DNA of 64,000 nt from Limnospira fusiformis SAG 85.79. GTDB taxonomy: Bacteria > Cyanobacteriota > Cyanobacteriia > Cyanobacteriales > Microcoleaceae. The translations under genes and the position numbers were made by a program. The notes beneath the pieces were generated by a model. It was given only the letters and a program-made list of their open reading frames with translations. It did no database searches and was not told where the DNA came from. Below are positions 1,772 to 47,099 of this stretch, piece by piece. Where the stretch lies: positions 3,413,363 through 3,477,362 of the forward strand of contig NZ_CP051185.1 in NCBI RefSeq assembly GCF_012516315.1, in the 5' to 3' direction. Numbering within the stretch: the stretch's first letter is position 1; each line of letters starts with the position of its first letter.

Positions 1772-4309
1772 ATGACGCAGCCTCTTATCCCTATCGATCA
1801 ATGTCCAATTCAGATTGAGGACGATCGCACAGGTACAAATGTGGAAACTCTCAAACGGGCTTTTGCAGATAACCTGTTTTATCTTCAGGGTAAGTATGAG
1901 TCCCTGGCTACCCAGGATGACTTTTATATGGCTTTGGCTTACACTTTGCGCGATCGCCTCCTGAGTCGTTGGCTAAAGACCATGAAAACTTACATGGAGA
2001 AAGATGTTAAGGTAGTTTACTACCTCTCCGCTGAGTTTCTCATGGGTCGCCACATGGGTAATAGTCTGATTAACCTCCATCTTTATGATCGGGTACGTCA
2101 GGCCGTCGAAGAGTCTGGGTTAGACTTGGATGAAATCCTCGAACATGAACCCGACCCCGGCTTGGGTAATGGCGGTTTGGGGCGGTTAGCCGCTTGCTTC
2201 GTCGATTCCTTGGCTACTCTGGAAATTCCCGCCGTGGGTTATGGTATTCGCTACGAATTTGGGATTTTTACCCAGGCGATCCGCGATGGATGGCAAGCAG
2301 AAGTCCCTGATAAATGGTTGCGCTTTGGTAATCCTTGGGAAATTGCCCACCCTGACCAAGCCGTTGAGGTGAAATTGGGGGGCCATACCGAAATGTACCA
2401 TAATGAAAAGGGAGAGTATAAGGTTCGTTGGATTCCCGCTAACCGGGTAGTCGGGATTCCCTATGATACTCCCGTTCCCGGTTATGATACTAATACGGTT
2501 AATCCCCTGCGTTTGTGGCGGGCTGAGGCTTCTGATGATTTCAATTTTGATGCCTTCAATGCTGGCAACTATGATGGCGCGGTCGCTGAAAAAATGCGAT
2601 CGGAAACTATCTCTAAGGTGTTATACCCCAACGATAACACCCCCCAAGGTAAGCAATTGCGACTAGAACAACAGTTTTTCTTTGTTTCTTGTTCCCTACA
2701 GGATATTATCCGCACTCACCTACTGCGACATCCTAGCCTGCATAATCTTCATGATACCGCCGCTATCCAACTTAATGATACTCACCCGGCAGTAGCGATC
2801 GCTGAAATGATGCGATTGTTAATGGATGAACATGAGATGGACTGGAATACCGCTTGGCGGGTGACTCAAAAGACCTTCTCCTATACCAACCATACCTTAC
2901 TGCCAGAAGCTCTGGAAAAATGGTCTGTGGGTTTGTTTGAATATCTACTTCCCCGCCACCTAGAGATTATCTATGAAATTAACCGCCGCTTCTTGGAGGA
3001 CGTTAAACGCTGGTATCCTGGTGATGATAATTTGATCAGTCGTCTTTCTCTGATTGATGAGTCCGGCGAAAAGTATGTCCGTATGGCGAATTTGGCTTGC
3101 GTCGGTAGTCATGCTGTTAATGGCGTGGCTGCATTGCATACCCAACTCCTTAAACAAGACACTCTCCGGGATTTCTATAAGTTGTGGCCCGGAAAGTTCA
3201 TTAATAAGACTAATGGTGTCACTCCCCGACGCTGGATTTTGATGTGTAATCCTAAACTCGCTGAACTTTACAACTCGAAAATCGGTGAGGGTTGGTTGAA
3301 AGACCTTAGTCAACTCAAGCAGTTGGAAAAATATGTTGATGACCCCGATTTCTGTCAGCAGTGGCGAGAAATTAAGCTGCACAATAAGCGACAGTTAGCC
3401 CAATATATCTGGGAACATAACGGCATCGAAGTTGACCCCCATTCGATGTTTGATATACAGGTGAAACGGATTCATGAGTACAAGCGTCAGCATTTGAATT
3501 TGCTGCATATTATCGCCCTGTATAATCAGATTAAGCAGAATCCTGACCAGCATATTGTACCCTGTACTTTTATCTTTGGTGGTAAGGCTGCCCCCGGTTA
3601 TTTTATGGCGAAGTTGATTATCAAGCTCACTAATTCCGTGGCTGATGTCATTAACCATGATCCTGATGTTAGAGGTCGCTTAAAGATTGTTTTCCTCAAC
3701 AATTTTAATGTTTCTTTGGGTCAGCGTATCTATCCGGCTGCCGATTTGTCTGAACAAGTTTCTACCGCTGGAAAAGAAGCCTCTGGAACCGGAAACATGA
3801 AGTTTGCTATGAATGGCGCGATGACTATTGGCACCTTGGATGGTGCTAATATTGAAATCCGCGAAGAAGCAGGCGAGGAAAATTTCTTCCTGTTTGGTTT
3901 GACCGCACAGGAAGTCGCTGATACTAAGGCGAAAGGTTATAATCCCAGGGATTATTATAGCAGTAATCCGTCCCTGAAAGCGGTAATCGATCGCATTGCT
4001 GCTGGCTATTTCTCCCACGGTGATAAAGAGCTGTTTAAGCCTTTGGTTGATTCCCTGATGTACCATGATCAGTATATGCTTTTTGCTGATTATCAGGCTT
4101 ATGTGGACTGCCATAAACAGGTCTCCAAAACTTACAGTGATCAGGATAAGTGGACTCGGATGTCTATTTTGAATGCACTGCGGATGGCTAAGTTTTCTAG
4201 CGATCGCACTATTCGAGAGTATTGTAATGAAATCTGGAATGTGCAGCCTGTACCTATTGAGATGGAAGAATACAGCCAAGAAAATGCTGGTTTGAATCTC
4301 GGTAAATAA
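1772..4309 (+). CDS. glgP: glycogen phosphorylase
   Basis: ~845 aa with the pyridoxal-phosphate site EASGTGNMKFAMNGA. AGGAGA RBS before the ATG at 1772; the annotated ORF start at 1745 is probably too early. Confidence 0.95.
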   Translation: MTQPLIPIDQCPIQIEDDRTGTNVETLKRAFADNLFYLQGKYESLATQDDFYMALAYTLRDRLLSRWLKTMKTYMEKDVKVVYYLSAEFLMGRHMGNSLINLHLYDRVRQAVEESGLDLDEILEHEPDPGLGNGGLGRLAACFVDSLATLEIPAVGYGIRYEFGIFTQAIRDGWQAEVPDKWLRFGNPWEIAHPDQAVEVKLGGHTEMYHNEKGEYKVRWIPANRVVGIPYDTPVPGYDTNTVNPLRLWRAEASDDFNFDAFNAGNYDGAVAEKMRSETISKVLYPNDNTPQGKQLRLEQQFFFVSCSLQDIIRTHLLRHPSLHNLHDTAAIQLNDTHPAVAIAEMMRLLMDEHEMDWNTAWRVTQKTFSYTNHTLLPEALEKWSVGLFEYLLPRHLEIIYEINRRFLEDVKRWYPGDDNLISRLSLIDESGEKYVRMANLACVGSHAVNGVAALHTQLLKQDTLRDFYKLWPGKFINKTNGVTPRRWILMCNPKLAELYNSKIGEGWLKDLSQLKQLEKYVDDPDFCQQWREIKLHNKRQLAQYIWEHNGIEVDPHSMFDIQVKRIHEYKRQHLNLLHIIALYNQIKQNPDQHIVPCTFIFGGKAAPGYFMAKLIIKLTNSVADVINHDPDVRGRLKIVFLNNFNVSLGQRIYPAADLSEQVSTAGKEASGTGNMKFAMNGAMTIGTLDGANIEIREEAGEENFFLFGLTAQEVADTKAKGYNPRDYYSSNPSLKAVIDRIAAGYFSHGDKELFKPLVDSLMYHDQYMLFADYQAYVDCHKQVSKTYSDQDKWTRMSILNALRMAKFSSDRTIREYCNEIWNVQPVPIEMEEYSQENAGLNLGK

Positions 4310-4327
4310 CTACATTCTCGTGGGTGT

Positions 4328-4356
4328 TTGGGGCGGCTACAAGTCGCCCTTTTTTC
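4328..4356 (+). terminator. rho-independent terminator after glgP
   Basis: GGGCG-loop-CGCCC hairpin followed by TTTTTT. Confidence 0.55.
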
Positions 4357-4552
4357 GTTCACAGAACTATCGCCGCCTTAAATTATGTCCCACTGCTGAA
4401 AGTCCATATAACTGCTCTGGTTGCCTTCTTGTCTGTGTAGTCGCTGGGAGAATTAGCACCAGAGTTTTAAAAAAAAGCGATCGCCTTAGTCTGCTATAAA
4501 AATTAACGATACAGTCTAAAGTACAAATCAGCCAACCATTATAGGGAAGTTT

Positions 4553-5977
4553 ATGTCAGAGCAAAAATTTGGTGTCATTGGTCTAGCGGTCATGGGTGAA
4601 AACCTCGCCCTAAATGTCGAACGCAATGGCTTTCCTGTCGCTGTTTATAACCGCACCAGTGCCAAAACTGATGAGTTTATGCAAAAACGCGCCCCAGGAA
4701 AAAATGTCAAACCCGCCTACAGCCTCGAAGAATTTGTCCAGTCCCTGGAACGTCCCCGGCGTATCCTCGTCATGGTCAAAGCCGGTAAACCTGTCGATGC
4801 CGTCATTGACCAATTGAAACCCCTGTTGGATCAGGATGATATGATTATCGACGGGGGAAATTCTCTCTATGAGGACACAGAGAGGCGCACCAAGGAACTC
4901 GAAGCTACTGGTTTAGGGTTTATGGGTATGGGTGTCAGTGGTGGCGAGGAAGGCGCATTATGGGGTCCTAGTTTAATGCCCGGAGGAACCGAGAATTCCT
5001 ATCAGGCCCTTGAACCCATTTTAACTAAAATTGCCGCTCAAGTTGATGACGGCCCCTGTGTCACTTATATTGGCCCTGGCGGTGCCGGTCACTATGTCAA
5101 AATGGTTCACAACGGCATTGAATATGGCGATATGCAGCTGATCGCAGAAGCCTATGACCTCCTGCGTAATGTCATTGGCTTGAATGAACAACAGCTTTAT
5201 GAGGTCTTTGCTGAGTGGAACACCACCGATGAGTTAAACTCTTTTCTGGTTGAAATTACTGCCGATATTTTTAAGCAAAAAGACCCCGAAACTGGCAAGC
5301 CTCTCGTTGACTTGATTTTGGACTCGGCTGGACAAAAAGGAACCGGACGCTGGACCGTCGTTAGTGCTTTGGAGTTGGGCGTTTCTATCCCTACCATTAC
5401 TGCTGCTGTGAATAGCCGGATTATTTCTTCCTATAAGGATGAACGGGTAGCCGCCTCTCAGCAATTGCCGGGACCTAGTGCTAATTTTGATGGCGATGTT
5501 AGCGCTTTTATTAATAAGGTTCGTGATGCCTTGTACTGCTCGAAAATCTGTTCTTATGCTCAGGGTATGGCGCTTATTGGTAAGGCTTCTCAGGAGTTTA
5601 ATTATCATCTGAATTTGGGCGAAATTGCCCGCATTTGGAAAGGTGGCTGCATTATTCGGGCGGGATTTTTGAATAAAATTAAGCAGGCTTATGACCAAAA
5701 TCCACAATTGCCTAATTTGCTACTTGCGCCCGAGTTTAAGCAGACTATTCTTGACCGTCAGTCCGCTTGGCGGGAAGTTCTCGTCACTGCCAATACTATG
5801 GGTATTCCCGTCCCGGCTTTTAGTGCTTCTTTGGATTATTTTGATAGTTATCGCCGCGTGAGTTTACCTCAAAATTTAACTCAAGCACAACGAGACTATT
5901 TTGGCGCTCATACTTATGAGCGTATCGATAAACCCCGGGGGCAGTTTTTCCATACTGAATGGACTAATGTTGATTAA
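4553..5977 (+). CDS. gnd: 6-phosphogluconate dehydrogenase (decarboxylating)
   Basis: N-terminal NADP-binding fold [15 protein letters not shown], 474 aa, conserved Gnd core throughout. Confidence 0.95.
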
Positions 5978-6056
5978 TTCTCAGGTTTAGTCCCTTCGTG
6001 ATTAACTGAGTTTTCCCTCACCCACAAACCCCCCACCTCTGGGGGGCTGCTTTATG

Positions 6057-7196
6057 CTATAAGGTGGCTATACATTCTATTTGCACTCGTGCATTTTCCG
6101 GGAGTTGCGACACCGCTACACAGGTACAAATTGGCAGATTTCCATCGGTGAAATAGCTAGAGTAAACGCTATTCATGCGATCGCTTTCCTGCAAGTCTAC
6201 CATAAAAATCGTCGTTTTCACCACCTTAGACCAACCTACTCCCGCCGCCGTTAAAATCGCGCCAATATTATCCATCACTCGCCGCGTCTGGTCGGTAATT
6301 TCGTCATCGCATAACATAATATTTAGGCGGGGGGCTATGGCTATTTGACCCGCAATATATATACAGTCATTAATGATAACTGCTTGGTGAGGACTATTAG
6401 GAGATTTCGGCGCGTTTTCTGTATTAATAAATTCTGCCTTAGTCGAGTTTCTCCCAGACTCCCCCACTTCCATAATCAAATCATCATCGAGGTCATAAAC
6501 TTCACCGTCTGGCATAATTGCGCCAATGATTTGAGCTTCTTGATAGTTAGTTAGGTACAAATTGGCATCAGTTAAATTGGCTCCGACAAAACTCGCATTT
6601 TTAACTTTGGCTTTCATTAGATTAGCTGTTTTGATGTTAGCTTGCTTGAAATTAGCCCCCTCTAAACAAGTCTCTCTCAAGATGGCTTCCTCTAGATTTG
6701 CCATTTTAAAATTACATTTTTTGCAGTTAGCTGCAGCCAAGTTGATGCGGAATCCATAAATGCCAGAAAAATTACATCCTTCTAAATCCAAATACGACCA
6801 ATTTATGGAAAACATTTTACTACCAGAAAAATTAACATTTTTGATTATAGCTTTAGCCATGTTAATATCATCAAATCGACTAGATTCCTCGAATTGAGCC
6901 CCGGTTAAATCTGCCCCAGAAAAATCTATGGTTTGCAAATCAGACTTGATAAAACAGGCGTTAGTTAAGTTGGCATTAACAAATTGTACGGATTGGAAAG
7001 TTGACCCACTAAAGTTACAATTCTTGAGATTAGCATGATCAAAGGTCATCTCTTGAAAGTCAGAGTTGCTTAAATCAGCACCTTCTAAGTTAATCTCACT
7101 CAAATTACATCCTTTCCAAGTAGTATAAGATAAATCGACTCCGGGGAAGTCGCGTTCACCTAGTTTGTATCTGTCAAACAATTTTTGTGCTTCCAT
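6057..7196 (-). CDS. pentapeptide-repeat protein fused to a C-terminal RidA/YjgF (enamine/imine deaminase) domain, copy 1
   Basis: N-terminal half is A(N/D)LxxxxF pentapeptide repeats. C-terminal ~125 aa is RidA-like (HQAVIINDCIYIAGQIAI...DNIGAILTAAG...TTIFM). Confidence 0.8.
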   Translation of the reverse strand: MEAQKLFDRYKLGERDFPGVDLSYTTWKGCNLSEINLEGADLSNSDFQEMTFDHANLKNCNFSGSTFQSVQFVNANLTNACFIKSDLQTIDFSGADLTGAQFEESSRFDDINMAKAIIKNVNFSGSKMFSINWSYLDLEGCNFSGIYGFRINLAAANCKKCNFKMANLEEAILRETCLEGANFKQANIKTANLMKAKVKNASFVGANLTDANLYLTNYQEAQIIGAIMPDGEVYDLDDDLIMEVGESGRNSTKAEFINTENAPKSPNSPHQAVIINDCIYIAGQIAIAPRLNIMLCDDEITDQTRRVMDNIGAILTAAGVGWSKVVKTTIFMVDLQESDRMNSVYSSYFTDGNLPICTCVAVSQLPENARVQIECIATL

Positions 7197-7301
7197 TTTC
7201 AGTTAGTCCTGGTAGATGTGGTTTTGACCCTATCCCAGAGTAGATATCTGCTGGGTATCGCACTATCAATTATATCTGATTATACGCCAATAGTGCATTT
7301 T

Positions 7302-8441
7302 TTAGGTGCTGGCTATACATTGGATTTGGACTCGGGCATTTTCCGGGAGTTGCGACACGGCTACACAGGTACAAATTGGCAGATTTTCATTTGTGAAATA
7401 GCTAGAGTAAACGCTATTCATGCGATCGCTTTCCTGCAAGTTTACCATAAAAATGGTGGTGGTAACCACCTTAGACCAACCTACTCCCGCCGCCGTTAAA
7501 ATCGCGCCAATATTATCCATAACTCGCCGCGTCTGGTCGGTAATTTCGTCATCACATAACATAATATTTAGGCGGGGGTCTATCGCTATTTGACCCGCAA
7601 TATATATACAGTCATTAATGATAACCGCTTGGTGAGGACTATTAGGAGATTTCGGCGCGTTTTCTGTATTAATAAATTCTGCCTTAGTCGAGTTTCCCCC
7701 AGACTCCCCCCCTTCCACAATCGAATCATCATCAGGGTCGTAAACTTCACCGTCTGGCATAATTGCGCCAATGATTTGAGCTTCTTGATAGTTAGTTAGG
7801 TACGAATTGACATCAGTTAAATCGGCTCCTATAAAACTAGCATTTTTAAGTTTTGCTTTCATCAGATTAGCTTTTTTGAGCTTGGCTTGCTTTAAATTAG
7901 CCCCCTCTAAACAAGCCTCTCTGAAGATGGCATTTTCGAGGTTTGCCAGTTTAAAATTGCAGTTTTTGCAGTTAGTTTCTGTCCAATTAGTTCCATGTAA
8001 ATTAGTTTTATAAAAGCTACATCCTTCTAAGTCTAAAAAAGACCAGTTTACGTCGCTAAATTTAACTTTGTCAAAATTGACATTTTTGGTGATGGCTTGA
8101 GCGATTTCACAACAACTAAATTGACGACATTCTCCGAATTGCGCTCCGGTTAAATCTGCCCCAGAAAAATCTATGCCGCGCAAATCAGACTGGATAAAAT
8201 AGGCGTTAGTTAAATCGGCATTAACAAATTTTACGGATTGGAAATTTGACCCACTAAAGTTACAATTCTTGAGATTAGCCCTATTAAAAACCATATTTTT
8301 CAATTCAGAGTTGCTGAAATCAGCACCTTCTAGGTTAATCTCACTCAAATTACATCCTGGCCAATTAGTATCAGATAAATCGACTCCGGGGAAGTCGCGT
8401 TCACCTTGTCTGTATCTGTCAATTAATTCTTGTGGTTTCAT
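7302..8441 (-). CDS. pentapeptide-repeat::RidA fusion protein, copy 2
   Basis: Paralog of 6057..7196. The RidA half is near-identical and the pentapeptide half is diverged. Confidence 0.8.
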   Translation of the reverse strand: MKPQELIDRYRQGERDFPGVDLSDTNWPGCNLSEINLEGADFSNSELKNMVFNRANLKNCNFSGSNFQSVKFVNADLTNAYFIQSDLRGIDFSGADLTGAQFGECRQFSCCEIAQAITKNVNFDKVKFSDVNWSFLDLEGCSFYKTNLHGTNWTETNCKNCNFKLANLENAIFREACLEGANLKQAKLKKANLMKAKLKNASFIGADLTDVNSYLTNYQEAQIIGAIMPDGEVYDPDDDSIVEGGESGGNSTKAEFINTENAPKSPNSPHQAVIINDCIYIAGQIAIDPRLNIMLCDDEITDQTRRVMDNIGAILTAAGVGWSKVVTTTIFMVNLQESDRMNSVYSSYFTNENLPICTCVAVSQLPENARVQIQCIAST

Positions 8442-8546
8442 TTTCAGTTAGTCCTGGTAGATGTGGTTTTGAGCCTATCCCAGAGTAGATATCTGCTGGG
8501 GATGGCACTATCAATTATATCTGATTATACCCCCATAGTGGATTTT

Positions 8547-9686
8547 TTAGGTGCTGGCTATACATTGGATTTGCACTCGTGCATTTTCCGGGAGTTGCGA
8601 CACCGCTACACAGGTACAAATTGGCAGATTTCCATCCGTGAAATAGCTAGAGTAAACGCTATTCATGCGATCGCTTTCCTGCAAGTTTACCATAAAAATG
8701 GTGGTGTTCACCACCTTAGACCAACCTACTCCCGCCGCCGTTAAAATCGCGCCAATATTATCCATAACTCGCCGCGTCTGGTCCGTAATTTCGTCATCAC
8801 ATAACATAATATTTAGGCGGGGGTCTATCGCTATTTGACCCGCAATATATATAAAGCCATTAATGATAACTGCTTGGTGAGGACTATTAGGAGATTTCGG
8901 CGCGTTTTCTGTATTAATAAATACTGCCTTAGTCGAGTTTACCCCAGACTCCACCCCTTCCACAATCGAATAATCATCAGGGTCGTAAACTTCACCGTCT
9001 GGCATAATTGCGCCAATTATTTCAGCTTCTTGATAGTTAGACGCATAAACATAAGCATTAGTTAAATTGGCTCCGATAAAACTAGCATTTTTAACTTTGG
9101 CTTTCATCAGATTAGCTTTTTTGAGGTTGGCTTGCTTTAAATTAGCTCCCTCTAAACAAGTGTCTTTTAAGATAGCATTTTCGAGAATTGCCATTTTAAA
9201 ATTGCAGTTTTTGCAGTTAGAATTAGCTAAGTTTATGCAGGTTCCATTGATGCGAGAAAAATTACAGCCTTCTAAATCAAAAAGCGACCACTTTATCCCA
9301 GTCATATTAATGCCAGAAAAATTGACATTTTTGATAATAGCTTTAGCCATATTAATATCACTAAATCGACTAGATTCCTGGAATTGAACCCCGGTTAAAT
9401 CTGCCCCAGAAAAATCTATGGCGCGCAAATCAGACTCGATAAAACAGGCGTTAGTTAAATCGGCATTAACAAATTCTACGAATTGCAAAGTTGACCCACT
9501 AAAGTTACAATTCTTGAGATTAGCCCTATTAAAAGTCATATTTTTAAAGTCAGAGTTGCTGAAATCAGCACCTTCTAAGTTAATCTCACTCAAATTACAT
9601 CCTTGCCAAGTAGTATAAGATAAATCGACTCCGGGGAAGTCGCGTTCACCTAGTTTGTATTTGTCAAGCAATTCTTGTGGTTGCAT
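8547..9686 (-). CDS. pentapeptide-repeat::RidA fusion protein, copy 3
   Basis: Paralog of 6057..7196, with the same 1245-bp phasing. Confidence 0.8.
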   Translation of the reverse strand: MQPQELLDKYKLGERDFPGVDLSYTTWQGCNLSEINLEGADFSNSDFKNMTFNRANLKNCNFSGSTLQFVEFVNADLTNACFIESDLRAIDFSGADLTGVQFQESSRFSDINMAKAIIKNVNFSGINMTGIKWSLFDLEGCNFSRINGTCINLANSNCKNCNFKMAILENAILKDTCLEGANLKQANLKKANLMKAKVKNASFIGANLTNAYVYASNYQEAEIIGAIMPDGEVYDPDDYSIVEGVESGVNSTKAVFINTENAPKSPNSPHQAVIINGFIYIAGQIAIDPRLNIMLCDDEITDQTRRVMDNIGAILTAAGVGWSKVVNTTIFMVNLQESDRMNSVYSSYFTDGNLPICTCVAVSQLPENARVQIQCIAST

Positions 9687-13322: not shown

Positions 13323-13373
13323 TCGCCATTGTAGCACCGAGAAGCGATCGCCTTTCCAGCCACTTCCGCCATT

Positions 13374-14066
13374 TTAGGGATTGATTGACAATCTTTGTAC
13401 AAATTCCTGATATTCTGGGGTAGCTATTCCTTCCTGTAACTTAGCTAAAACCTGCGCCATATTACCCGATAATAGCGCATTTACATCTAACCATAAACCT
13501 GGGAAAAATGTACTTTTCAGACAACCAGAATTATCTATCTGTTGTAGCTGATAGCGTCCTTCACAGAGTACATACCAGCGAAATTCTGACCCATCAACCA
13601 GCCAGACTAAATATTCCCTTACACCATTACGGCGATAGGCGTGTAGCTTATCGTGGAGGTCTTTTGAGGCGCTACTGGCTGCAATTTCTACAATCAATTC
13701 TGGCGGTCCTTCTATATAATCATCCTCACTAATGCGCGACTGTCCCCCCGCCGCCTCTTCGATACGCAATAAAGCATCTGGTTGCGGTTCATTATCCATG
13801 TCTAGGCGAACACTTGCGTTATCCGCCACTTGAGTCTCTGGTGTAGAAGCTGCATAAACTTGTAACCAAGTGATGATTTTGGCGTGAGGGTCGGCGTGTT
13901 GTCGGACCCTAACAGGGGATGTCATATAAACGACTCCTTCCACTAATTCAGCCTTTTTTATATCCGGTAGCAAACTATAGCGCCGCTCAAATTCTATCAT
14001 CGATAAGCGATCGCCATTTTCCAAAGTTGGGAGAATTGTCTGAGAACCTGATGGAGTATAATTCAT
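13374..14066 (-). CDS. Uma2 family endonuclease (DUF820), copy A
   Basis: Typical Uma2 N-terminus (LSMIEFERRY...AELVEGVVYMTSP) and C-terminal core. 230 aa. Confidence 0.8.
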   Translation of the reverse strand: MNYTPSGSQTILPTLENGDRLSMIEFERRYSLLPDIKKAELVEGVVYMTSPVRVRQHADPHAKIITWLQVYAASTPETQVADNASVRLDMDNEPQPDALLRIEEAAGGQSRISEDDYIEGPPELIVEIAASSASKDLHDKLHAYRRNGVREYLVWLVDGSEFRWYVLCEGRYQLQQIDNSGCLKSTFFPGLWLDVNALLSGNMAQVLAKLQEGIATPEYQEFVQRLSINP

Positions 14067-14149
14067 AACATCACCTAACCATTAAAGTTGTAAAAGTCTA
14101 TTATTTATTATAGCTATCAGCGATCGCCTTTCCAGCCACTTCCGCCATT

Positions 14150-14842
14150 TTAGGGATTGATTGACAATCTTTGTACAAATTCCTGATATTCTGGGGTAGC
14201 TATTCCTTCCTGTAACTTAGCTAAAACCTGCGCCATATTACCCGATAATAGCGCATTTACATCTAACCATAAACCTGGGAAAAATGTACTTTTCAGACAA
14301 CCAGAATTATCTATCTGTTGTAGCTGATAGCGTCCTTCACAGAGTACATACCAGCGAAATTCTGACTCATCAACCAGCCAGACTAAATATTCCCTTACAC
14401 CATTACGGCGATAGGCGTGTAGCTTATCGTGGAGGTCTTTTGAGGCGCTACTGGCTGCAATTTCTACAATCAATTCTGGCGGTCCTTCTATATAATCATC
14501 CTCACTAATGCGCGACTGTCCCCCCCCCGCCTCTTCGATACGCAATAAAGCATCTGGTTGCGGTTCATTATCCATGTCTAGGCGAACACTGGTGTTGTCA
14601 CAAACCATAATGTTAGGCGTAAAACTGCGGTAAAAAACCAGCCAACCCATAACATCACTATGAGGTTTTCCGTGTTGTCGGACCCTAACAGGGGATGTCA
14701 TATAAACGACTCCTTCCACTAATTCAGCCTTTTTTATGTCCGGTAGCAAACTATAGCGCCGCTCAAATTCTATCATCGATAAGCGATCGCCATTTTCCAA
14801 AGTTGGGAGAATTGTCTGAGAACCTGATGGAGTATAATTCAT
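14150..14842 (-). CDS. Uma2 family endonuclease (DUF820), copy B
   Basis: Near-identical to copy A except for a ~30-aa patch (GKPHSDVMGWLVFYRSFTPNIMVCDNTS versus ADPHAKIITWLQVYAASTPETQVADNAS). Confidence 0.8.
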   Translation of the reverse strand: MNYTPSGSQTILPTLENGDRLSMIEFERRYSLLPDIKKAELVEGVVYMTSPVRVRQHGKPHSDVMGWLVFYRSFTPNIMVCDNTSVRLDMDNEPQPDALLRIEEAGGGQSRISEDDYIEGPPELIVEIAASSASKDLHDKLHAYRRNGVREYLVWLVDESEFRWYVLCEGRYQLQQIDNSGCLKSTFFPGLWLDVNALLSGNMAQVLAKLQEGIATPEYQEFVQRLSINP

Positions 14843-14911
14843 AACATCACCTAACCATTAAAGTCTATTATTTATTATAGCTATGATAGCCGGATAATAC
14901 CGCTTCATGAA

Positions 14912-16848: not shown

Positions 16849-17075
16849 CGCCAATATGAATATATACCTAGTGATTTTTAGTAGATGCCTATTTTTTCCT
16901 GTGGGGGTCAGTTTACAAAACCCCCTCCGAACCGAAAACCAATCTTAGAACCTGCTCCTACACAGCCTGAATGTGACAAGTGATTTGGCGAATACAATAA
17001 TCAACCCTGATATCTAATCTATCGCCTAGTTTTGGAAGCTCAGTCAAGATCTAAATTGTTCCTACTAACTAACGT

Positions 17076-17660
17076 CTAGTTTTTGCCAGAGATCGCTTTT
17101 TGACCAACCATCATACCGCCAACGGCTACCAAACCTAACAGCATTCCCGGTTCGGGAATTTCTGTCCGGCCGCCTGGTCTGCTGCTGGGGGTGTCGAACA
17201 CATACAGAGTCGCATGAGACAAGCCAGGTCTTCCTGTTTCCCAGTTTAAATTCTCTAATTGGTCGATCCCGTCAAACAGATAAGCCGCAAAACCTGGACC
17301 ACCTTTGATCACAAAGGCAAAAGTGGAATCTTTGAGGCTATCATCAAAAAACGTCAGAGTCCCTTTACCTTCACTGGTGCTGGCGATGGTGAAAAAGGCG
17401 TTCTCACCAGTGCTTCTATCAACTTTGTAGTCGTCTAGTCTAAAACCATCGATTACTGTTTGACCAAACATAGATTCAATGGCAGAAACATTGTCATTTC
17501 CACCACTATCTTGGCAAATGTAAGTTAATCCCGCAAACAAATTTTCTTGGCAAGTGGCAACGTTGCGAGGTTTTTGGGCCATGGCATCCGGTGCCAAGGT
17601 GGACACTAAGCCAGCGGCTAAAACTACGGAAGTTACTATATTTAATAATTTAACTTTCAT
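17076..17660 (-). CDS. PEP-CTERM sorting-domain secreted protein
   Basis: N-terminal signal peptide. C-terminal IPEPGMLLGLVAVGGMMVGQK + basic tail, i.e. the PEP-CTERM exosortase motif. Confidence 0.75.
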   Translation of the reverse strand: MKVKLLNIVTSVVLAAGLVSTLAPDAMAQKPRNVATCQENLFAGLTYICQDSGGNDNVSAIESMFGQTVIDGFRLDDYKVDRSTGENAFFTIASTSEGKGTLTFFDDSLKDSTFAFVIKGGPGFAAYLFDGIDQLENLNWETGRPGLSHATLYVFDTPSSRPGGRTEIPEPGMLLGLVAVGGMMVGQKAISGKN

Positions 17661-17752
17661 CTTGGCTCTCCAAAAATCTAGGTGGGACTAGGCTGGAAAC
17701 ATGGCGCTTGTTTCCCTATCTGTTCACCATTATACCCAACACCACCAGAACC

Positions 17753-17800
17753 GTCCTCAGTGTTTGTACTGATTTACAGGATCTTTACATAATGCTCACA
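17753..17800 (-). promoter_or_regulatory. conserved upstream element shared by both PEP-CTERM paralogs (copy 1)
   Basis: cctcagtgtttgtactgatttacaggatctttacataa lies ~95-140 bp upstream of the start. Near-identical text sits at the same offset upstream of the paralog. Confidence 0.5.
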
Positions 17801-18018
17801 CTTACTTTAAGTTTCTGTTAAGTAAAGTATCCGCTATCCAATCCTATCATTTATGGATGCAATACAGTTAATAATTGACGCTAATAGATATTATCAGTTT
17901 ATTTAAACTTCTTTAATTGCGGAAATTCTAGTTATCCTAACTAACTATAGTCGTATTTTCTATGATTCCCGTGAACTTAACCCCTAGAGCCTGACTCTCC
18001 ACAGAACCCCGAAAAGGA

Positions 18019-18066
18019 GATAACCCGGCAATTAGTCTTAAAGACCATAGCACCGGGTTATTGTCC
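18019..18066 (-). terminator. hairpin terminator after the PEP-CTERM gene at 18102..18674
   Basis: Perfect 9-10-bp inverted repeat ATAACCCGG/CCGGGTTAT followed by a U-rich tract on the minus strand. Confidence 0.45.
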
Positions 18067-18101
18067 CTAGTTTTTGAAGTTGAGTAGAGATGCTAATTCA
18101 T

Positions 18102-18674
18102 CTAGCTTTTGCGAGAGATGGCTTTTTGACCAACCATCACACCACCAATGGCTACTAAACCTAACAGGGTTCCGGGTTCAGGAACTGGTATTGGGGGAAT
18201 TGGGCTATCGAACACATACAGAGTCGCGTGAGACAGACCAGGGCCACCAGTTGACCAGCTTAAATCAGTTAGTTGGCTAATACCGTCAAACAGATAAGCT
18301 GCAAAACCGTTACCACCTTTGATCACAAAGGCAAAGGTAGAATTAGCCAGTGTGGAGTCGAGGAAGTTCATGGTCCCGACACCTTCACCAGTGCTGGTGA
18401 TGTCGAAAACATTTGCGATCGCGCCACTGCTGTCATCAACTTTGAAATCGGCAATTACTTCTCGTTCAAATAGCGCTGCAATGCGAGTAGCATTGTCATT
18501 TCCAGCGGGTCCACCAGATTGTTCCCGACACTCTTCAAACAAGCCACCAAAAATATTATCTTGGCAAGTGGCAGCGTTGCCAGGTCTTTGGGCCATGGCA
18601 TCGGGTGCAAAGGCGGACACTAAACCAGTGGCTAAAACTGCGGCTGTGGCAATATTTAAAAATCTAACTTTCAT
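18102..18674 (-). CDS. PEP-CTERM sorting-domain secreted protein (paralog)
   Basis: Signal peptide. C-terminal VPEPGTLLGLVAIGGVMVGQKAISRKS. Confidence 0.75.
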   Translation of the reverse strand: MKVRFLNIATAAVLATGLVSAFAPDAMAQRPGNAATCQDNIFGGLFEECREQSGGPAGNDNATRIAALFEREVIADFKVDDSSGAIANVFDITSTGEGVGTMNFLDSTLANSTFAFVIKGGNGFAAYLFDGISQLTDLSWSTGGPGLSHATLYVFDSPIPPIPVPEPGTLLGLVAIGGVMVGQKAISRKS

Positions 18675-18767
18675 TTCCGTCCTCCAAAAATATAAATTTA
18701 ACTAAGCACTAAACACGAGGTTAGCTGTTTCAATATAGTAATTATTATACACGAGATGACCCATTCT

Positions 18768-42849: not shown

Positions 42850-43671
42850 TTAGAGGGAACTAGAATCCAAGCTCTTGGCTTCTTCGTCGCTTTGGGGAAG
42901 GTGTAAGCCGCACTCTTGTTTAAGTCCCCGGAACCGGGTATCACGATCGCTTTGATCACTATCAGTCACCGGGCGACTGGAATGCCAATCACCAACAGTA
43001 GTGTAACCGAGGTCAAAATAGGGATGATAGGGGAGGTCGTGGGCGGTTAGATATTGATAGACATCGCGGGAATGCCAATTAAGAATCGGGTAAACCTTAT
43101 AACGACCCGATTGGTAATCAATAGAACGCAAAGTTTGGCGGTGTGCGGTCTGATCAGCCCTAAGTCCCGCCAACCAAGCCGTAGCCCCAAGTTCATTTAA
43201 AGCCCGTTGCATAGGTTCAACCTTGCGGATTTGGTCATAGCGGTTAAAGGCTTCGAGATCATTTTGTTCCCACAGACGACCATAAAGTGCTTCCATCCTA
43301 GCCGGAGACAGGGAAGATTGATAGACTTTCAGATTGAGTTGGAGGCGCTGAGTCAATTCTTCAGCAAAGCGGTAGGTTTCAATGGGAAGATAACCCGTAT
43401 CGACCCAAATCACCGGAATATCTGGAACTACCTGGGTAACTAGATGTAGCATCACAGCCGATTGGATACCGAAACTGGTACTCATCAACAACCCTGACCC
43501 AAAAGTTTCCGCAGCCCATTTCACAATATCAGTAGCATTAGCATTTTTGAGGCGATCGTTAATGCTATCGAGATCCAGTTGCTCTAAAGTGCGATCGTCA
43601 CAGCACCCGTTTTGGTCTGACGGGATAGATGCAGATTGTCCGTTGGAATTAATTAGACTCAAATTCGTCAT
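42850..43671 (-). CDS. cysH: phosphoadenosine phosphosulfate (PAPS/APS) reductase
   Basis: PAPS_reduct core ([28 protein letters not shown]) and C-terminal ...KQECGLH. Confidence 0.85.
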
Positions 43672-43798
43672 CTTTTTTCCCTCCTAGAGACCCCCGCCAT
43701 AGCTGTATTCAGCTGGGCTGGCTGCCGGAGTAAACGAGGGGCAGCACTTAGTTGGCATACGAATAACCATCCTTCTTGTGAATATTTGACTGATACAT

Positions 43799-44932
43799 TT
43801 ACGCGACATTTTTCCGGTTGTTCCCGGACAATGCAACGATAGCACTATTACCCGTTAAGGTAACAGAGGCGGTATCCCGCAAAGCTTTTAGAAAGATTCC
43901 AAAAGCACCGTTCCAGTCCCTAGGTAGAGTGAACCCACACTCCGGACATCGGAACACTTTTGAGCCACCTAGCTGGGAATGCACATGACCACAGTGAGTA
44001 CAGGTTTTGCTGGTGTATTCTTCCGTCACATCTACAACTGTGGTTCCAGTTATTTCCCCTTGATGTCTCAGGGTTAGTTTGAATCGATAATGCGCCCATG
44101 TCAGCATGGCGCGGGCAGTCTTAGACCTGATTAGACGCTTCACCTTGGCAACCATATCGGAAGTCTCGAAGGTGGGCAAAAAAATTAGGCTGTAGTTGTG
44201 AGTCAAGTAGTGAGCAATTTGTTTGTGGGCTTCATCAACTAGATTGCGGATTTTGGTTCTCATTCGTTGAGCCGCTTGCCTCATCCGTCGCCTCCTTGAA
44301 CGACAGGGTTCCTTGGCGATTCGGCTCATTAAATCATCCAAATGTTGACATAGCCTAGTAATGCGTCCAATATCCCCGGAGCCCAATTCCAGAAATCGTG
44401 AACCATCAAACCCGGTTATGAAAGTTCGCACACCCGGGTCTAATGCAATCACGCCAGTAGCGTCAGTTGGGGTAACGGCAACTGGTTCAGGGAAAATCGC
44501 CAACCATCGACCTTTGGTAAACACCAACTGAGTCCCTTGCCCGCAAGTTTTAGGGATGGGTTCGGAAACCATGAAAGTTAATCCTTTCGTGAGTCTTGGA
44601 TACCAACTCCCTGAAGAGAAATTAGCATCGTTAAACTTGATGGCTTGAGAACTATCCCGACAGCTCCTAAACCTTGCGCCAGGACTGGCTGAAAAGGCGA
44701 GATAGGCATCAAAGATAGCATTCTGCCGAATGTGGCAGGGTGTTTCTTTGACCCATGCAGGCAAGTCGCTCTGCATCACTTCGTTGCGTAATTTCAGTTT
44801 GCTTAGTCGTTTACCACTCCGGGATAATGCAATTGCTTGGTTGTAGCAATACCGACAAGCGGCCAACCATTTGCGCCAGACTTGATTTAGCTCGGGGCTG
44901 GGGTAAATCCGGATCTTCTTTGACCTGAGTTT
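43799..44932 (-). CDS. tnpB: TnpB (OrfB_IS605, RuvC-like + zinc ribbon) of the IS607-like element
   Basis: KIRIYPSPELNQVWRKWLAACRYCYNQAI N-terminus; RuvC motifs; C-terminal CTHCG...CPECG zinc finger. No canonical ATG at the expected start, so translation may be coupled to the tnpA frame. Confidence 0.75.
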   Translation of the reverse strand, partial: KLRSKKIRIYPSPELNQVWRKWLAACRYCYNQAIALSRSGKRLSKLKLRNEVMQSDLPAWVKETPCHIRQNAIFDAYLAFSASPGARFRSCRDSSQAIKFNDANFSSGSWYPRLTKGLTFMVSEPIPKTCGQGTQLVFTKGRWLAIFPEPVAVTPTDATGVIALDPGVRTFITGFDGSRFLELGSGDIGRITRLCQHLDDLMSRIAKEPCRSRRRRMRQAAQRMRTKIRNLVDEAHKQIAHYLTHNYSLIFLPTFETSDMVAKVKRLIRSKTARAMLTWAHYRFKLTLRHQGEITGTTVVDVTEEYTSKTCTHCGHVHSQLGGSKVFRCPECGFTLPRDWNGAFGIFLKALRDTASVTLTGNSAIVALSGNNRKNVA

Positions 44933-45480
44933 TGTATTTACTCCGTCCGTATAATCGGGAACTGAAGCAGTGGAGGATGGCGAGGATGTCCTCAACCATT
45001 TCTGGTTCTGGACTGAGACTTGTCTGGTTGAGAACCATGAGTGAACACCTGTTTTGCTCACAGAGCCATCGAAACAAGTCAAATCCCCATATTGCCAATC
45101 AGTCTTTGTGGGCAACGACAACCATGCCGACATCTCCTGACAAATGATGTCCCAGTAAGGCCAGCATTTTCTTTCCCTTGAAGTTGAGCCCGCCTCGGAT
45201 TTCTGAGACGACTTCTGCTTCGGGGTAGAGGTTGGACAGTGCGGCCACCTGTCGGTTGAGGTCTGACTGCTGGGCGCGGCTACTAACTCTGGCATAGATA
45301 ACGACTTTGCGTTTGTCACTGCCTGATTTGGCAGCAGTATATCACTCAACGTTGTATCGTCGTTGCCCAGCGGGGGTTCTGATGGTCTCGATTGAGCCAT
45401 TGTCGTCCCATCTGCGGAGTGTTCTTTCATGGACTCCAAGGATTTGGGTGGCTTCCTTGGGTTTGACATATCTGGCAATA
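44811..45480 (-). pseudogene. tnpA: IS607-type serine recombinase tnpA, disrupted
   Basis: Frame B reads ...RRYNVE*YTAAKSGSDKRKVVIYARVSSRAQQSDLNRQ...VVVAHKD*. It then shifts to the 95-aa ORF RLARFGFDLFRWLCEQ...ILHCFSSRLYGRSKYK (resolvase catalytic Ser in YARVSS). Confidence 0.7.
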
Positions 45481-46079
45481 GGTTTATCCTCAACCCTTCT
45501 CGCTTATTATACTGTATTGCCCTAAAATATTAACCGAATTTGTGATTAAATCATGCTCTCTCCACGCTAAAGCAACGGAGATTCGGGAATGAACCAAAAG
45601 TTCTCACAGGCGTAGTCAAAGCGCCCCTATAGGTAGCCATAAGGCTTCCCTTTACTTTTTTTCGATGTCCCTTTTGCCTCTCGCCGATGAAACCACTTTG
45701 CTACCGACATTTCTGCATTATGCAAGTCTGCCCTCACGGGATGTTAAGCCCCTTTCATTCGGGTCTTAGAGAAGGCAGTTATATGATACCATAGCACCCG
45801 CCGGCGTAAGCACGCCTGTCGCTTTTCCTCCCCGTTAAAGAGACGGGGCTACCAAGCCACCGAGCTTTCAGCGTGTTGAGATCTTAAAACTTCCAGCAGT
45901 AGCCGTGGTGCAACCCACAGAATCAATCGTCCGGTATGATGACTTATCCGCAGTCCCCACAGCGGGTTTAGGCATAACCCAAACAAATCTTACCCAAAAA
46001 TTCCCTGAGCAACTACCCTTGTTTTGACGCTCCCCGCTCTAAATAGACGGGGATTCTTCATTCATAGACTTGCCATAAT

Positions 46080-47099
46080 TTAGCAGGATTTCTCCAACCA
46101 AACTAGAGGGCAAATCTCTGAAGCTTGAGATTTGGTGCGCCCCACCATACTTAATCCTTTTGGCAATATGTTTAAAGCAGCGTTTCTATCACGGAAGTCT
46201 GTATATCTGCAATGAGGGCAGACATGAGTGCGAGTAGATAACGACTTTTCTACCCTTTGGTCACAATTAGAACAATTCTGAGAAGTATTATGGGGTGGAA
46301 CAGCAATAACCAATTTGCCATACTTATCCCCAAAATACCCTCGCCATCGTTTAAAAGTAGCCCATCCTGCATCGGTTATCGACTTGGCTAAACGATGATT
46401 TATAACCATACCTCGAACATTCAAGTCTTCACAAACTACCAAACCGTTAGATTGGACTAAACGGAGTGCCACGCTTTTGACAAACTCTTCTCGCTGTCTG
46501 CTTACTCTTAAATGTTTTTTGGCCTAAGGAGTTAAAGGGGTTATGGTATCTCTAGGATCTAATTTTATGGAGAATTGAACATAATATCCATCTGCTTGTC
46601 TAATAATCCTCACTCGCTTAATCTGTTCAGGCTGATAGTAATTAATATCCCTAGAGCCGATCAGCTTGAGCTTACCAATACCTTTTTGGTCGGTAAAAGT
46701 GATCTGCCGTTTATTGTCTGATAGTTTCCATCCAGAGACTTTATATTCTACCGAACGAGAATGTTTTTTGAATCTTGGATACCCCTTCTTCCCCTTGACC
46801 TGGTTTTGGCAATTCTCGTAAAAACGAGTAATGGCACCGAGAACCCTTTCAACTGTCGTTTGACAAGCATGATAGTTTAAATCCTTGACCAAATCAAACA
46901 CCTTCCGCAGTGCTGTGTTGCATCGAAATAAGTCAACCTTACCTATGCCACGATTGTCCATCCAATAACGAAGCACCTTATTGCCGACAAACTGTGCTGT
47001 CCGTATTGCTTCATCAATGGCTTCGACTTGATGTGGCTTGGGTTGGACTTTGTATTCGATCACCAACATTTTGACACTGTACGCGCTGGTATCAGCCAT
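46080..47099 (-). pseudogene. second tnpB (IS605/IS1341-type), internally deleted (RuvC-I region missing) and split
   Basis: The 191-aa N-terminal part (MLVIEYKVQPKP...) and the 130-aa C-terminal part (VVCEDLNVRGM...NTSQNCSNCDQ...HVCPHCRYT) are only 52 bp apart, so ~70 aa including the GIDxG motif are absent. A CGCGGGTT-AA-AACCCGCG hairpin at 47118..47140 resembles an IS200/605 end structure. Confidence 0.7.

Follow-up and report, generated by a model that had tools for sequence, protein, structure and literature searches.

The 64,000-nucleotide (nt) stretch of DNA considered here, hereafter termed the window, comes from Limnospira fusiformis SAG 85.79 (contig NZ_CP051185.1, positions 3,413,363 to 3,477,362) and carries a complete insertion sequence (IS) of the IS607 family, of the type named ISArma1, inserted upstream of the gene cysH. 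The element occupies 43790–45555 (1,766 base pairs, bp) on the minus strand, which also carries the other features of this region described below, and when this strand is read in the 5′–3′ direction the order is left flank, IS, a leader of 118 nt and cysH (42850–43671). Two genes lie within the element in the arrangement typical of IS607: a serine recombinase gene, tnpA (44811–45479), which is now a pseudogene, and 3′ of it and overlapping it a gene for a TnpB protein (43799–44995). Here, we describe the state of these genes, the structured RNA that is encoded at the end of tnpB and the role that the two may have at this locus.

The ends of the element were fixed by alignment with strains that lack it. 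A look-up of the exact CysH sequence gave ten loci of the Arthrospira/Limnospira platensis group (L001–L010), and in three of them (L001, L008 and L010) the element occupies the same site as in the window, while in the other seven (L002–L007 and L009) the site is empty. The empty site reads GTGGAGAGAG/TCACATATTC (the slash marking the junction) and the occupied site GTGGAGAG(AG)CATGATT...GTATC(AG)TCAAATATTC, the left end of the element beginning CATGATTTAATCAC and the right end closing GCGTAAATGTATCAG. Alignment of occupied with empty sites reveals no target-site duplication, the termini have no inverted repeats, and one AG dinucleotide is common to both junctions, which is the signature of a crossover by a serine recombinase. 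A matching core dinucleotide at the two junctions is a hallmark of IS607 elements, although, as read from the sequence alone, the candidate core here is AG, compared with GG in the members that have been studied. The window is 99.84% identical to two assemblies of strain C1 across 12.75 kilobases (kb). The IS-free relatives had been proposed as a comparison in a preliminary description of this DNA, which recognized an IS607-family element some 130 bp upstream of cysH; the family is borne out by the lack of inverted repeats and of a duplication, together with a profile match given below, and the distance is a fair one (127 nt from the tnpB stop to the cysH ATG, 118 nt from the end of the IS). 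The extent that it proposed, 43672–45560, has to be redrawn, as its right end took in the 118 nt of native cysH leader and its left end was 5 nt off; in the comparison that fixed both junctions, the leader at 43672–43769 is unchanged.

Two of the ten loci show local peculiarities. The empty site of L007 (positions 5985–5995 of that locus) has an (AG)n run that is 4 nt shorter, giving GTGGAG/TCAAAT, and carries the flanking single-nucleotide polymorphism of the IS-bearing alleles; the shortened run could be due to repeat slippage or could be the trace of a lost IS. In L008, the orthologous copy (~4100–4900 of that locus) departs from the window at many sites in tnpA and towards the 5′ end of tnpB, while its 3′ 900 nt are identical, a pattern that suggests gene conversion from another ISArma1 copy.

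The tnpA pseudogene begins with ATT (45479–45477) and its frame now ends at a TAA (44813–44811). Intact TnpA proteins of 201 amino acids (MARYVKPKE...KSSLA) are found in several Limnospira and Arthrospira genomes, with 92–97% identity to the window copy. The intact homologues combine the Pfam domains MerR/HTH_17 and Resolvase, that is, a serine recombinase with the MerR-like helix-turn-helix expected of IS607, and the repaired window sequence scores 188 bits against the NCBIfam model transpos_IS607 (cut-off 110). Measured against two intact 201-amino-acid proteins (P0121 and P0124, 96–97% identity), codon 46 has changed from TCA to TGA (45344–45342), codon 127 from CGA to TGA (45101–45099; R126), the natural stop has been lost by a change of TAA to CAA (44873–44871), and a 3-nt insertion has added one Ala. 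In the overlapping tnpB frame, the R126-to-TGA change and the loss of the stop are both synonymous, and the S46-to-TGA change replaces His by Asp. Judged by its reading frame, tnpA is inactivated. It had been called dead earlier on the grounds of an in-frame TGA and a frameshift; there are in fact two TGA codons plus a lost stop, whereas the frameshift is ruled out, since the entire TnpA aligns in a single frame. The absence of an ATG is likewise ruled out as a lesion, because relatives with an uninterrupted tnpA also have ATT at the start, translated as M by NCBI.

A dead tnpA beside a live tnpB is common in this family. Among 80 related loci (L011–L090), tnpA is uninterrupted in 37 and tnpB is full-length in 53, with many of the relatives having a truncated tnpB. 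Because 24 of the 53 full-length tnpB genes stand beside a tnpA that is broken or undetectable, the state of the window copy looks like the normal decay of non-autonomous copies and not like a special ‘solo TnpB’ state. The suggestion that a conserved solo TnpB is the configuration in which the protein acts as a nuclease must therefore be dropped, as published TnpB proteins of IS607 and IS605 elements work beside an active TnpA (PMC10690162) and the 24 relatives likewise have a broken or undetectable tnpA.

The tnpB gene starts at a TTG, as annotated in relatives, ends at a TAA (43801–43799) and encodes 398 amino acids; it forms part of an open frame of 564 codons (45493–43799), the C-terminal ~380 residues of which correspond to TnpB. 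The protein contains the Pfam domains HTH_OrfB_IS605, OrfB_IS605 and Cas12f1-like_TNB and scores 125.6 bits against the NCBIfam model NF040570, guided_TnpB (cut-off 100), while falling short of the narrow ‘exception’ models IS607_TnpB (45.8 versus 350) and IS200_TnpB (61 versus 425). The catalytic triad of the RuvC domain is made up of D185 (44440–44438) in the motif IALDPG, E325 (44020–44018) in TEEYTSKTC, six residues ahead of the first cysteine, and D359 (43918–43916) in PRDWNGA; the zinc finger of the CxxC..CxxC type (cysteine codons from 44002 to 43937) is complete, with C331/C334 (CTHC) and C349/C352 (CPEC). In each of the alignments A2, A4 and A5, E325, D359 and three of the zinc-finger cysteines show no variation; D185 and the remaining cysteine are likewise invariant in two of these alignments and nearly so in the third. 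At ~212 columns with at least 85% conservation the window protein deviates at 4–6, and at least two of the deviations (K-to-L in KVKRLIRSK and A-to-G in RHQGEITG) are also found in the Arthrospira copies P0001 and P0002. The retention of RuvC motifs and zinc finger noted previously thus extends to every catalytic and zinc-binding residue, a search for inactivating RuvC substitutions found none, and the gene is intact and apparently functional.

The nearest relatives of both proteins come from the same group of cyanobacteria. The closest TnpB proteins (96% identity) are 398-amino-acid Arthrospira proteins that start at the TTG equivalent to 44995 and belong to a cluster of 761 members, and UniRef names for the TnpA homologues of 96–97% identity are IS607 or, in one case, ‘ISArma1 family’. 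From these database names we infer that the element is a copy of ISArma1, which was described from Arthrospira maxima and bears an ISfinder name (PMC3673617, PMC3627910). The two share the host genus, the order of a serine-recombinase tnpA followed by tnpB, the lack of inverted repeats and of a target duplication, and TnpA and TnpB proteins that are 96–97% and 96% identical to Arthrospira/Limnospira proteins; the window copy differs in having an inactivated tnpA, and the likeness to the reference sequence runs through the database names. Among bacterial elements, ISArma1 has for years been named as the one nearest to the eukaryotic IS607-like and Fanzor2 elements (PMC3673617, PMC3627910).

Yoon et al. 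(2023, PMC10711439) use the term pro-Fanzors for cyanobacterial IS607 TnpB proteins in which the RuvC-I motif is DPG and a glutamate stands six residues ahead of the zinc finger. The window TnpB has the same features: it has IALDPG, its alternative glutamate E325 precedes C331 by six residues, its partner is an IS607 TnpA, its host is a cyanobacterium and its nearest solved relative is a Fanzor2. This relative is the mimivirus protein L79 (9b0l), which ranks first in sequence searches (E = 3.6e-25 for one sequence as the query, 2.2e-31 for a profile of the family) and in a Foldseek comparison of folds (E = 1.8e-16), and which has in common with TnpB an active site made up of DPG and the alternative glutamate; L79 differs in being a 520-amino-acid protein of a eukaryotic virus with ~130 residues before the KIRIYP motif. 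The family itself is cyanobacterial: by record title, 72 of the 80 related loci are from cyanobacteria, five from metagenome-assembled genomes of Oscillatoriales or Oscillatoriaceae, and three bear ‘uncultured bacterium’ or incomplete titles. The TnpB of the window belongs with the cyanobacterial pro-Fanzors, the bacterial clade closest to eukaryotic Fanzor2. This clade has no characterized RNA or target motif in the passages of PMC10711439 consulted, and the RNA scaffold, the RGAG motif and the AG core discussed below are deduced here from sequence.

TnpB nucleases are guided by an RNA, termed omega RNA or right-end element RNA (reRNA), which is structured, comes from the 3′ end of tnpB together with the right end of the element, and takes its guide from the flanking DNA. 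At the level of sequence all three features are recognizable in the window copy. In ~55 relatives with a full-length tnpB (55–95% protein identity) the right end closes with a near-invariant ...GCGTAAATGTATCAG, and similarity among them breaks off exactly past ...ATCAG; since similarity ends immediately after this invariant terminus (43804–43790), the right end of the element is fixed at 43790. The scaffold lies at 43790–43969, inside the 3′ end of tnpB. RNAalifold, applied to the last 260 nt of 70 elements, places stem-loops at ~43909–43883, 43880–43869, 43866–43845 and 43838–43802, with a possible long-range pairing of 43969–43964 with 43843–43838. The common fold is accompanied by compensatory changes, for example GCGG/CCGC, GAGG/CCTC and GTCG/CGAC, as well as GCUUUUGG/CUAAAAGC and GCACGUAA/UUACGUGC. 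In an alignment of the 70 elements made from sequence only, 90.2% of cells are paired, compared with 43–50% when the partners are slid, and 265 cells are changed on both sides, compared with 28–77. A 150-nt covariance model (R1) scores 151 bits at 43939–43790 and has a high-scoring match (87–157 bits) at the tnpB 3′ end in 74 of the 80 loci, and beyond these it gives just one further, weaker match, the second in L076; in alignment A7, which was fitted to R1, 91.4% of cells are paired versus 34–55%. Identity at four-fold synonymous sites is 0.79 over the scaffold and ~0.3 in the body of tnpB. The final ~150–180 nt of tnpB, through to the right end, therefore encode an RNA whose helices have been kept by compensatory changes across the family.

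The covariance and structure search over the tnpB 3′ end had been put forward as a check in the preliminary description, which expected a guide RNA at ~43680–43850. Such a module does exist, although its scaffold lies within the tnpB coding sequence and stops at 43790. The idea that the guide RNA region coincides with the region upstream of cysH holds insofar as the predicted guide comes from cysH-upstream DNA; this contribution amounts to ~16–20 nt (43789 to ~43770), and 43672–43769 is native leader.

With R1 run without filters, the window contains no omega RNA copies other than the scaffold of the element and one orphan. The latter is a 250-nt right-end fragment of the same IS on the plus strand (1504–1753), which comprises the last ~240 nt of tnpB and the terminus and is 96% identical to 43787–44039. 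It has a complete scaffold (R1, 147 bits at 1604–1753), ends 18 nt before the start codon of glgP (1772) and is present in 10 of the 10 Arthrospira strains examined, with one zinc-finger cysteine codon mutated (CPEW). If an RNA were made from it, the ribosome-binding region of glgP would be its guide.

The predicted guide of the element itself, TCAAATATTCACAAGAAGGA, corresponds to the ~20 nt of native flank next to the right end (43770–43789). At the other end, the left junction of the window reads GGAGAGAG/CATG, and the flank carries GAGA-G, a form of RGAG, at 45556–45559 (GAGAG extending to 45560), with its AG shared with the terminal AG of the right end. Among the left flanks of independent insertions (L011–L086), 12 of the 16 rows of close relatives have RGAG as their last letters, as do three more when a shift of 1–2 nt in the fuzzy match is allowed for, L043 being a mis-hit; by eye, the same motif is seen where similarity within a group begins in nearly all of 38 more distant loci from eight subgroups (L037 and L047 are unclear). 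We infer that RGAG is a candidate for the target motif, or target-adjacent motif (TAM), with AG as its core. Among the IS-free alleles, L007 has GGAG followed by an exact match to the predicted guide, and L002 and L003 have GAGAG followed by the guide sequence with one mismatch; alleles of this kind, with RGAG next to the guide sequence, would be exactly the substrate for a homing TnpB.

These features suggest the following scheme. The tnpB transcript would give rise to an omega RNA, processed by TnpB, in which the scaffold ends in ...AUGUAUCAG and the 3′ ~16–20 nt, UCAAAUAUUCACAAGAAGGA, derive from the flank upstream of cysH. The complex of TnpB and omega RNA would then recognize RGAG-TCAAATATTCACAAGA, that is, the IS-free form of the same locus, which might arise by excision of the element through TnpA acting in trans or might sit on a sister copy of the chromosome. 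Cutting of the IS-free form by TnpB would lead to recombination that re-copies the element, resulting in retention or homing, and in a polyploid cyanobacterium it could also convert IS-free chromosome copies. The occupied locus would escape, as the right end (..TCAG) takes the place of RGAG in front of the target. As tnpA is dead in cis, excision would need TnpA supplied in trans, and the intact TnpA copies in related genomes make such mobilization possible.

The scheme follows the published mechanism of IS607 TnpB and omega RNA, as set out in PMC10711439 and PMC10690162. In the same sources, ISXfa1 and CboIStron have a guide RNA of ~150 nt that is encoded where tnpB closes at the right end and that reaches into the flank, their TnpA and TnpB recognize overlapping target motifs, and TnpB restores excised copies. 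They differ from the window element in their GG core and in their GGG and TGGG motifs, which were shown experimentally, compared with AG and RGAG here; the glutamate is in the canonical position in these systems, and the window element has no group I intron.

Overall, this is a real, ordinary and decaying copy of the catalogued ISArma1, in a state of dead tnpA and live tnpB that is common in the family. We consider it to be a non-autonomous copy with a pro-Fanzor TnpB and an intact omega RNA module, for which selfish retention or homing is the likeliest role, and put the probability of this reading at roughly three in four. Several points weigh against it. Activity of TnpB and its omega RNA is argued from sequence and by analogy with ISXfa1 and CboIStron; the TAM was derived from flank statistics only, and its AG core is unlike the GG core that has been studied experimentally. 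Rfam families, including RAGATH-18 and the IS605-orfB motifs, give no match at gathering score over the window or at E ≤ 5 over 43600–46200, on which grounds an assignment of the scaffold to RAGATH-18 or an IS605-orfB motif was rejected. Among the 120 TnpA matches listed, those named for strain C1 are all shortened (125–127 amino acids). The orthologous tnpB in one of the C1 assemblies (L001) has non-synonymous changes, one of them Q-to-E in HIRQNA, a motif that is otherwise invariant. Finally, the insertion is young, and the intact tnpB reading frame by itself therefore does not show selection on the window copy.

Some of these points would also fit an inert relic, a recent and decaying IS in which the tnpB reading frame is intact for lack of time, with TnpB and its RNA idle at the locus. 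Besides the L001 changes and the truncated tnpB genes of many relatives, such a relic would account for the three inactivating changes in tnpA and for the impression, gained by eye, that the 1.77-kb IS holds about half of all differences from the C1 assemblies, against 99.84% identity over the whole 12.75 kb. We consider a relic unlikely: of the 212 positions with strong conservation the window TnpB agrees with the family consensus at ~206, and it does so at every catalytic residue, two of the changes that kill tnpA are silent in the tnpB frame with the third causing only the His-to-Asp replacement, and the scaffold, at 151 bits, is on a par with those of intact elements (105–157).

A second alternative concerns cysH, which encodes a protein of 273 amino acids of the phosphoadenosine phosphosulfate reductase family (Pfam PAPS_reduct, E = 4.9e-56). 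The insertion keeps 118 nt of native leader and displaces the DNA farther upstream by 1.77 kb; the part of the leader between guide segment and ATG (43672–43769), with a GGAGG just ahead of the start, is identical in IS-free and IS-bearing strains and gives no match in Rfam. A promoter-like site, TTAATA-16 nt-TATAAT, is found by consensus scan in the left end of the element upstream of tnpA (45506–45533, 10 of 12 matches, by pattern match alone), 1.8 kb upstream of cysH, and the scan gave no other consensus-like site on the cysH strand. Between it and cysH no intrinsic terminator is predicted, so that read-through into cysH is possible, as far as pattern matches can tell. The scans for consensus promoters and terminators left the native cysH promoter unlocated in occupied and empty loci alike, and the IS-free intergenic region has no sigma-70-like promoter by the same scan, which is a crude one given that cyanobacterial promoters often have no −35 element. 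The scans speak neither for nor against the rewiring of the cysH promoter that the preliminary description considered. The element, or its right end, might on this basis drive or modulate cysH, either through read-through from the left end or through binding of TnpB and omega RNA near the promoter in the manner of TldR. The element is co-directional with cysH and 118 nt from it, and the second, orphan right end near glgP, which all 10 strains share at a distance of 18 nt from that gene, might point in the same direction. Yet the insertion is polymorphic and most strains do without it, with cysH and leader otherwise identical; the RuvC triad is intact, unlike that of TldR; the guide is merely the adjacent flank, as in every mobile copy; and the promoter scan is subject to the limits just given. 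We regard regulatory co-option as very improbable, more so than an idle relic, and if the element functions in retention or homing, any effect on cysH would be a by-product. The insertion does place a co-directional unit (left-end promoter, tnpA remnant, tnpB and omega RNA), with no predicted terminator, ahead of the gene. A domesticated regulator of the TldR type, which resembles the element in being a TnpB-family protein with a guide RNA beside a host gene but has lost its RuvC residues and is fixed by its targets, is rejected because the window element has an intact triad, normal transposon ends and a polymorphic locus with the insertion absent from 7 of the 10 strains.

The open frame of tnpB extends beyond its annotated start and through tnpA. 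In the window, this upstream continuation (44996–45493), which is the +1 frame of tnpA, runs for 166 codons without a stop and includes the motifs PYW (at 45160) and SWFS (at 45040). In nearly all relatives, those with an intact tnpA included, the tnpB frame is open for 117–208 codons upstream of the annotated start (at ~2500–3000 of loci L011–L090), while in the same relatives the third frame closes at once. For 35 intact tnpA genes, the number of stops to be expected was obtained by shuffling synonymous codons with amino acids and codon usage fixed: the +1 frame has 18 stops where 150 are expected, and none where 127 are expected in the last ~150 codons, compared with 429 against 443, and 367 against 361, in the +2 frame. 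Identity at four-fold sites in tnpA rises from 0.38, the background level, over codons 1–50 to 0.61–0.68 over codons 100–200 (the tnpB body has ~0.3–0.4), and the motifs P[YF]W and SWFS are conserved in the protein read from the +1 frame. From sequence statistics, the tnpB frame would be open across the clade for at least ~115 codons upstream, over the 3′ two-thirds of tnpA; whether this amounts to dual coding we regard as an even bet. The +1 frame is probably translated, whether it extends TnpB at the N terminus or forms a leader.

In an AlphaFold model of the long form of TnpB, the predicted local distance difference test (pLDDT) is below 50 for residues 1–119, and while the full-length profile alignment extends into residues 77–131 of L79, a profile of the extension alone has no match in the PDB at E ≤ 10, L79 included; a folded N-terminal domain therefore has support neither from structure nor from homology. 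Gilbert and Cordaux noted that ORFB of a eukaryotic copy has ~100 more N-terminal residues than that of ISArma1, which is at least compatible with the extension of the tnpB frame. If dual coding were true, the annotated TnpB of ~398 amino acids would be N-terminally truncated or preceded by a translated leader, and tnpA and tnpB would be dual-coded over ~350 nt, which would alter the view of the annotation and expression of both proteins. The extension might then be the bacterial counterpart of the extra ~100–130 N-terminal residues of Fanzor2, and there would be an explanation for the build-up of lesions that inactivate tnpA yet are synonymous in the tnpB frame.

As one more copy of a catalogued IS family, the element is in itself of little weight. 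Its value lies in alleles with and without the IS that occur naturally in near-isogenic Arthrospira strains, a pairing suited to questions of pro-Fanzor homing and of cysH expression, and in a scaffold supported by covariation, an exact right end and a candidate TAM, RGAG, for the bacterial clade nearest to the eukaryotic Fanzors.

The ISArma1 copy was inserted 524 nt downstream of an older, fragmented tnpB of the IS200/IS605 type, which remains as pieces of 130 and 191 amino acids (46080–46472 and 46524–47099) and is also present in the IS-free strains. Between this remnant and the new IS are two similar GC-rich hairpins, CCCCGTCT..TTTA..ACGGGGAG (45823–45845 and 46022–46050). Elsewhere in the window there are tandem duplications at 6057–9686, 13343–14864 and 17075–18715, the duplicated units being three of 1,245 bp (encoding pentapeptide-repeat proteins of 379 amino acids), two of 776 bp (open reading frames of 230 amino acids) and two of ~1,014 bp.

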